Shown piece after piece: positions 1-249 of a stretch of DNA of 4,368 bases. The position numbers and the translations under genes were made by a program. Under the pieces are notes generated by a model that did no database searches, was not told where the DNA came from, and saw nothing but the letters and a program-made list of their open reading frames with translations. The stretch lies in the IMG/VR virus record IMGVR_UViG_2671180915_000012; one strand, written 5' to 3'. Within the stretch, counting starts at the first letter, position 1, and each line of letters opens with the position of its first letter. The stretch is from a virus. Its lineage: Duplodnaviria > Heunggongvirae > Uroviricota > Caudoviricetes.

Positions 1-249
1 CAGGAGTTGCTCGACTGCATTTCAAAGCTTCGGGATGATGTAAATGCCCTCACTGTTGCATTTTCATATTTGGCCTTATCAATTCCCAGAGAACAAATGC
101 AACCAACACTGGCATCGCTCCTGCTTGAATCACGCAACCCCAAATGGTCCCAGGAACAACAAAATTCTTTCAAGTGGCTGGCGGCATTACTGGAAGAAAA
201 ATATGCTGGTAAAATTACCATTTCGGTGGAGTCTTCAGAGAATCAGTAA
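1..249 (+). CDS. 3' portion of a protein of unknown function; frame is open to the left window edge, so the 5' end is missing
   Basis: Frame open from position 1 (QELLDCISKLRDD...SVESSENQ) to TAA at 247-249. Composition is protein-like with amphipathic Leu/Glu/Lys-rich stretches. The only in-window ATG in frame (97) has no Shine-Dalgarno, so the true start is probably upstream of the window. The antisense frame is also open but Ser/Cys-rich and looks non-coding. No family recognised. Confidence 0.4.
   Translation, partial: QELLDCISKLRDDVNALTVAFSYLALSIPREQMQPTLASLLLESRNPKWSQEQQNSFKWLAALLEEKYAGKITISVESSENQ

Follow-up and report, generated by a model that had tools for sequence, protein, structure and literature searches.

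An open reading frame that runs in from the left edge of the 4,368-base window (the window being the whole stretch of DNA analysed here) is very probably the 3' part of a real protein-coding gene of 90 codons, termed here orf90, which is a moron of a Qin-like lambdoid prophage whose endolysin gene lies intact just outside the window. A moron is defined as a separate unit that has been inserted between genes lying side by side in related phages (PMC3594210), and comparison with the Qin prophage of K-12 indeed shows orf90 to be such an extra gene; the factor-independent terminator of its own that is also associated with morons was not found for orf90. This leaves the lysis cassette complete and makes the unexpected ORF an ordinary, uncharacterised accessory gene of the prophage.

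Contents of the window

The window is a segment of a Qin-like lambdoid prophage. In addition to the genes listed below, cspB and a DUF968 gene were found on the minus strand, and ynfU and cspF on the plus strand. The plus-strand ORF at the left edge, in frame +1, is open from base 1 and spans 82 codons, ending with a TAA at 247-249; its overlap of about 35 bp with the 3' end of the DUF1327 gene, as described in the original prediction, was confirmed as positions 215-249. The relevant features are as follows.

1-129 nt left of the window, plus strand: first 8 codons of orf90, its ribosome-binding site (RBS) and a promoter-like spacer (from genomes identical over window 1-4270)
1..249, plus strand: 3' part of orf90, codons 9-90 and stop (ORF calling, comparison with identical genomes)
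215..249, both strands: convergent overlap of the orf90 and ydfR 3' ends, 35 bp (ORF coordinates)
215..355, minus strand: variant YdfR C-terminal tail, codons 69-114 and stop (K-12 homology breaks at ~350-355)
356..559, minus strand: conserved YdfR/DUF1327 N-terminal domain, codons 1-68 (PF07041, E 8.9e-43)
559->215, minus strand: ydfR (DUF1327), whole gene (ORF calling, Pfam)
564..779, minus strand: essQ, class II holin, first gene of the lysis cassette (WP_000839580, annotated essQ)
2683-3435, minus strand: Q-type antiterminator (Qin-like prophage segment)

Taken alone, an open frame of 82 codons at the edge of a window is weak evidence for a gene. In the overlap at 215-249 both frames are constrained, and ydfR codons 103-114 have a pN/pS of 0.23. 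It had been noted that no lysozyme-like frame follows DUF1327 within the window, and indeed none was found on either strand in window 1-560. At the other end, window 4271-4368 is the left end of an IS1203/IS629-type element of the IS3 family, which interrupts the DUF968 gene; this junction (4270/4271) was absent from the complete E. coli genomes and from the GTDB representative genomes.

The full-length gene and the location of the endolysin

The left flank was inferred from genomes that are identical to the window over 1-4270, namely those of E. coli O55:H7 CB9615, strain PAR and strain 2013C-4974 (100% identity); over window 1-700, 100% identity was found in 21 complete E. coli genomes among the matches listed. 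In the CB9615 locus (L001), window base 1 corresponds to L001 12001. Leftward extension, which had been recommended along with the original prediction, yielded the full ORF of 90 codons (273 nt), with its ATG located 24 nt left of the window and an AAGAGG RBS placed 8 nt upstream of the ATG. The gene is an annotated CDS in every RefSeq genome examined, and its product is catalogued as the hypothetical protein WP_001315200, equivalent to UniRef 'Ybl58' and to phrog_2411. The expectation that something undescribed would be found here therefore holds for function, since none of these entries carries a functional assignment, but not for the sequence itself.

In CB9615 and PAR, rrrQ, which encodes a 177-aa lysozyme on the opposite strand, starts 105 bp upstream of the orf90 ATG, which places it some 130 bp outside the left edge of the window; rzpQ comes next. 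The gene order was the same in the seven other alleles examined, the lysozyme of APEC O1 being frameshifted. Judged from these sequences, the order of the cassette is holin, DUF1327, the antisense extra gene, endolysin and Rz. Because the window ends before rrrQ, the apparently missing endolysin is an artefact of the window edge, and the ORF does not occupy the endolysin slot as had been proposed. A rearrangement that put the ORF in the place of the endolysin, and removed the latter, had been offered as a further explanation, and would agree with the lack of a lysozyme frame after DUF1327 within the 4,368-base window; it is, however, vanishingly improbable, since every segment-carrying genome examined has rrrQ and rzpQ directly on its left side.

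In strain 2013C-4974, the 105-bp spacer that separates orf90 and rrrQ carries an ISEc8 element (IS66 family; L027 799-2337 / L028 539-2851), beyond which rrrQ and rzpQ are intact. In this strain the element separates the endolysin from the remaining lysis cassette, and it probably also separates orf90 from its promoter-like region.

Evidence for protein coding

Eight alleles, of 86-100% DNA identity, were compared. The orf90 frame was intact, at 273 nt, in all eight; its variable sites were distributed as 14/13/32 over the three codon positions, with a pooled pN/pS of 0.28 and pairwise dN/dS of 0.11-0.58, and the four frames with wobble positions that do not align with those of orf90 gave pN/pS values of 0.96-1.82. 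On the minus strand, an ORF of 94 codons (L001 12221->11937, corresponding to window 1-221 and 64 nt to its left) had a pN/pS of 0.25, equally low because its wobble positions coincide with those of orf90. Since this sharing renders the enrichment by codon position non-discriminating between the two frames, the integrity of the ORFs across alleles was used instead.

It could be argued that the real gene is the 94-codon ORF, acting as a late gene translationally coupled to ydfR, since its ATG and the stop codon of ydfR overlap (AAATGGTAA) in a manner typical of coupled genes, and since it is open in five of the eight alleles with the low pN/pS just mentioned. We nonetheless hold this to be highly improbable, as the ORF is stopped in the other three (two in-frame stops in L004, one each in L008 and L009) while the plus-strand ORF is intact, and is also broken in a plasmid copy described below; moreover, its composition is Ser/Cys-rich and not protein-like, and the wobble sharing with orf90 explains its low pN/pS. 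On the sequence evidence, the 94-codon ORF is a shadow ORF of orf90.

In the databases, indel variants of orf90 are in frame and encode 82-88 amino acids, and a minority of alleles are frameshifted or have a stop at W57, which indicates that orf90 is dispensable in some lineages. The truncated products of 56 amino acids (P0047, P0049, P0050, P0056) end just before W57 and occur in four allele backgrounds, which suggests that nonsense mutation has hit the TGG codon repeatedly, or else that the truncation has spread by recombination; there are also several frameshift variants of 94 amino acids. The truncated and frameshifted variants, and the equally low pN/pS of the antisense frame with its coinciding wobble positions, might be taken to mean that the orf90 frame is untranslated, and that what is conserved is instead an antisense RNA or a DNA element. 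We regard this as quite unlikely, because the plus frame alone stays open throughout the eight alleles as well as in the plasmid copy, the indels preserve the frame, the RBS is good, the AlphaFold2 model is confident, and the protein belongs to a family that extends to about 30% identity, shares a conserved amino-acid motif and occupies unrelated genomic contexts.

The predicted protein

The orf90 protein has a mass of 10.2 kDa and a pI of 4.6, and lacks a transmembrane segment or signal peptide. AlphaFold2, using a 17-sequence alignment, predicted three helices, comprising residues 8-34, 38-52 and 59-77, with a mean pLDDT of 81.8; helix 1 of the model contains a leucine heptad (L11/L18/L25/L32). 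Residues 80-90 scored a pLDDT below 50; this predicted disordered tail is the part that overlaps ydfR. The product is predicted to be a small, acidic, soluble three-helix bundle.

By profile search, orf90 matched phrog_2411 with E 4.9e-57, residues 1-90 covering the 90-position profile. No Pfam or NCBIfam family and no PADLOC defence-system family was matched at E <= 1, and a Pfam scan of 11 diverse members of the orf90 family gave chance-level matches only. Structural searches were similarly negative: the sequence-profile search of the PDB returned nothing below E = 1, and the fold search with the model gave no significant PDB match and no functional lead. There was, specifically, no sequence or fold match to an endolysin, an Rz protein or an IS transposase, the identities that had been named as evidence against the original prediction. 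The suggestion of a foreign cargo gene, in comparison, was borne out, as orf90 is extra relative to K-12 Qin and matches no named family.

Distribution and relatives of orf90

The orf90 segment was found in 1,130 of 5,426 complete E. coli genomes (~21%), its carriers including B-type laboratory strains, STEC and APEC, and the exact protein occurs on at least 1,000 contigs, in clusters named Ybl58. The gene is a tractable candidate for a lysogen-expressed host or phage-conflict factor. In homologue searches by word-indexed and exhaustive HMMER methods, close relatives were restricted to Escherichia and Shigella. The wider family consists of proteins of about 80-106 residues, with 28-43% identity to the first member of the alignment and a common motif, VN.L..AFSYL.F...E...I.AL.FES; its members were found in many Serratia species and in Chania, Gibbsiella, Chimaeribacter, Acerihabitans and Sodalis.

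The genomic contexts of these relatives are diverse. In phages, they lie antisense between tail genes L and M or adjoin terminase genes, and one, in a Citrobacter prophage, is located just upstream of a holin gene. The Serratia relatives (L021 6001-6279, L022 1463-1741, L023 4001-4282) are chromosomal and lie between dinI and bssS, co-oriented with both neighbors and just after the dinI terminator. This fixed position hints at a host role of the orf90 family, perhaps related to stress or biofilm. The Sodalis ligni relative is also chromosomal, at a site unrelated to that of Serratia. A plasmid homologue was found in the 128-kb NZ_CP065971.1 (L010 4027-4281; 72% DNA identity), beside an autotransporter gene and IS remnants and outside any lysis cassette; this copy keeps the plus frame open and has a stop in the antisense frame. 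Because relatives occur outside lysis cassettes, the orf90 family is not tied to lysis. The start of the plasmid copy, ATG ATG AAAAAA, is one base out of frame in the A-run, P0066 being in frame, and the copy is therefore either a pseudogene or the result of a homopolymer sequencing error.

The ydfR/rrrQ junction and the variant YdfR tail

The comparison with K-12 Qin, which had also been recommended, clearly showed an empty site. The two prophages share essQ, the YdfR N-terminal domain, ynfU, cspB, cspF and the Q antiterminator, as well as rrrQ/rzpQ in the genomes that match the window; in K-12, however, the coding regions of ydfR (103 aa) and rrrQ overlap by 4 nt, with no gene between them. 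In the alignment, about 485 bp of the present sequence, comprising YdfR codons 69-114 (the tail), orf90 and the spacer that precedes it, stand in place of about 105 bp in K-12. Homology extends from the ydfR start to about codon 68 (window ~350-355) and is then lost. The tail of 46 residues found here is unrelated to the 35-residue tail of K-12; its pN/pS of 0.22 marks it as truly coding, a genuine alternative C-terminus. Note that K-12 YdfR fits Pfam DUF1327 over positions 1-93 of 93, and that the copy here fits it with a divergent tail. [quoted passage not shown] The swap point found here, at about codon 68, falls where this binding region ends.

The same essQ-ydfR-rrrQ cassette, with EssQ 83-90% and RrrQ 93-94% identical, was found on three viral contigs, L050 (2262-3459), L086 and L124, where the exact orf90 site is occupied by an unrelated antisense cargo of 98 amino acids (phrog_25324) with a full leader of the type described below. 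The presence of unrelated cargo at the same site identifies the ydfR/rrrQ junction as a hotspot of cargo exchange.

These results also bear on the possibility that orf90 is a lysis-specific regulator, which either as a protein (an inhibitor of holin, endolysin or YdfR) or through convergent transcription would damp leaky late genes and thereby protect the lysogen, or would tune the timing of lysis. The location of orf90 inside the lysis cassette, with its convergent 35-bp overlap with ydfR, is in keeping with such a role, as are the holin-adjoining Citrobacter relative and the fact that orf90 in E. coli is always accompanied by the specific YdfR tail variant, itself under selection. Nevertheless, we consider a lysis-specific role unlikely, as relatives of orf90 occur within tail operons and beside terminase genes, and there are a plasmid copy and chromosomal copies without lysis genes in the vicinity; moreover, the unrelated cargo in other phages and the empty site in K-12 Qin imply that the position reflects an insertion hotspot and not function.

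Several members of the orf90 family face small late-strand ORFs, namely L011 6261-6476 (-), L024 5239-5430 (-), L019 1068-1325 (-) and, in the window, 215-250 (-). Weak motifs were seen in these partner ORFs, SL(D/E)..V..LE at the N-terminus and I.G.LK.PP.(W/Y/L) at the C-terminus, and the end of the YdfR tail, ...ITDSLKTPPKW, resembles the latter. Homology between the YdfR tail and the partner ORFs was not established: BLASTP of YdfR against the L011 partner gave nil, and the all-against-all comparison gave E values of 0.04-0.5. By analogy with gp22/gp23 of phage HK022, the two convergent genes may together form one module.

The spacer upstream of orf90

A strict sigma-70 scan found no promoter upstream of orf90, and a scan for intrinsic terminators found none downstream of its stop, where the ORF runs into ydfR. 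Among the orf90 alleles, the spacer is invariant from -105 to -75 and most variable from -75 to -15. Its 5' part aligns with a TTGCT...TGGTTAAGGT-type region that is common to more than 80 cassettes, with a near base-for-base match over about 45 nt between the orf90 loci L001, L005 and L008 and the other loci L040, L084, L103 and L050. A close match of this kind was seen with cassettes that carry the full leader at the orf90 site. The promoter-like region of this shared module (ATCAGG...CCCTGG(T/A)TA..GT) is present upstream of E. coli orf90, and the position of its first hairpin is occupied by a hairpin, GCCTG-TTGAAT-CAGGC, or CAGCCTG...CAGGCTG in L008. The second hairpin, which bears the loop GAUGGCUGAUUA ahead of the RBS, is absent from the E. 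coli orf90 alleles. The distant relatives L011, L016, L018 and L019 have the full leader; in L024 the loop motif of hairpin 2 is divergent. The GC content of orf90 (0.43) differs modestly from that of rrrQ (0.51) and of essQ and the ydfR N-terminal part (0.45-0.46).

LexA boxes were considered and rejected: upstream of the orf90-family members, the only CTG-N10-CAG was a spurious one inside hairpin 1 of L016, and the inverted repeat of the shared leader has the non-canonical spacing CTG-N9-CAG.

A structured leader shared by unrelated small genes

Distant relatives of orf90 show conservation of the upstream non-coding sequence despite protein identities of 30-40%. When viral contigs were scanned with the most conserved motif of this leader, at least 120 loci were retrieved (L030-L149); among the matches listed, the full leader core occurred in 109 instances, and the nearest long ORFs on both sides were on the opposite strand in 76 of 81 scorable cases. 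The ORFs downstream of the leader encode 63-99 amino acids and fall in at least 25 clusters without BLAST relatedness; the only matches among these cargo proteins were to DUF1883 and, below threshold, to a Lar-like zinc ribbon, the others being of unknown function. The module is about 130 nt long and consists of a promoter-like region and a 5' leader of about 80 nt. It was also located at L011 5840-6003, L016 5840-6003 and, in phage HK022, L150 1501-1629. Alignment of 89 leader sequences (A4) revealed the following architecture, in order.

1: antisense-facing terminator hairpin
2: inverted repeat ACTGnT...ATCAGG
3: -35-like TTGCT and -10-like TGGTTAAGGT
4: TTCAGCCCG
5: 8-bp hairpin, its loop usually GTGGGA
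6: second hairpin, its stem formed by an SD-like AGAGG and CCTCT, its loop being GATGGCTGATTA
7: the real SD (AAGGA), followed by ATG

Because the loop motif served as the search key, only the stems count as covariation evidence. In A4, 13 of the 14 base pairs had changes on both sides, and the number of covariation cells was 103, compared with 24.7 in shuffled alignments, none of the 500 shuffles reaching as high; controls with slid partners were far lower. Both hairpins thus have strong covariation support. The invariant UCAGCC is complementary to the GGCUGA of the second loop, and in the ViennaRNA minimum-energy fold of one leader the UCAGCC/GGCUGA pairing replaces hairpin 2. A pseudoknot or an alternative fold through this pairing is thus predicted as possible, and, if the leader acts as a riboregulator, either of them would hide the ribosome-binding site.

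The leader cassette is apparently undescribed: no paper describing it was found in our literature search, which also returned nothing relevant on Ybl58 or HK022 srb, and a search of five leader-bearing loci against Rfam 15 gave no family over the leader, its matches elsewhere being isrI and sub-threshold istR. The isrI match, to an Hfq-binding sRNA (RF01392, 51.7 bits, above the gathering score), is at L024 6929-7026 (-), some 1.7 kb away from the orf90 homologue of the Citrobacter prophage.

The module occurs in phages HK022, HK633, mEp213, mEp043, ES18 and SPN3UB. In HK022 (NC_002166), it precedes the gene annotated as "srb; moron gene product gp23". This gene is placed between tail genes I and J in antisense orientation, convergent with gp22. 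Homology of orf90 to the Srb-like cargo is not claimed (hhalign probability 19%). Taken together, it is possible, if on the doubtful side, that orf90 is one cargo of a modular cassette widespread in enterobacterial temperate phages, lambdoid ones included, in which a riboregulator leader gates interchangeable accessory proteins of host-modulating or anti-defence type, encoded nearly always antisense within late operons, with the ydfR/rrrQ junction as an exchange hotspot and the E. coli copy as a derived form that lost hairpin 2. The structured leader, which precedes many unrelated small phage genes and among them srb of HK022, itself one of the first morons described, is the more valuable lead. 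Should it prove regulatory, it would mark an entire class of accessory genes, and would help both in finding them and in learning when they are turned on by prophages.

Possible mode of action and relation to known morons

With regard to how orf90 may act, we tentatively propose the following, at somewhat less than an even chance for the scheme as a whole. The gene would be transcribed separately, from the 105-bp spacer beside the rrrQ start codon, as suggested by the near identity of the 5' part of this spacer to the shared promoter-like module. Such transcription would oppose the late operon, so that expression would be independent of lysis and would probably occur in the lysogen. The protein most likely acts by binding another protein, and a conserved component of the host would be a likelier target than a lysis protein, given that Serratia and the Sodalis group carry orthologue-like copies on their chromosomes.

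Among known systems, srb (gp23) of HK022 is described as a moron with convergent gp22, at tail genes I/J (Juhala et al. 2000, as cited in PMC3594210). Like orf90, it is a gene for a small helical protein (73 aa), lies antisense in a late operon, converges on and overlaps a small late-strand ORF, and is preceded by the module, of which orf90 has the 5' half. The two differ in location, srb being in the tail operon and orf90 in the lysis cassette, and in the leader, since 92% of the leader query is matched in HK022, whereas hairpin 2 is not recognisable upstream of E. coli orf90. Lambda bor lies next to the lysis genes. Together with gene 15 of HK97, bor represents the small independent genes of the late region that are thought to be expressed from the prophage (PMC3594210). 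As a small independent gene added to a lambdoid late region, orf90 resembles both; however, Bor is a lipoprotein (serum resistance) and gp15 a membrane protein (superinfection exclusion), whereas the orf90 product is predicted to be soluble, acidic and helical. Lastly, the chromosomal proteins of about 90 amino acids in Serratia, Sodalis, Chania, Gibbsiella and Acerihabitans (for example P0083, P0074 and P0079) match the family with profile E values of 1e-18 to 1e-28; they share the length of orf90 and its helix-1/helix-2 motif, but are only 28-43% identical, are co-oriented with their neighbors, and lack the phage-type leader.
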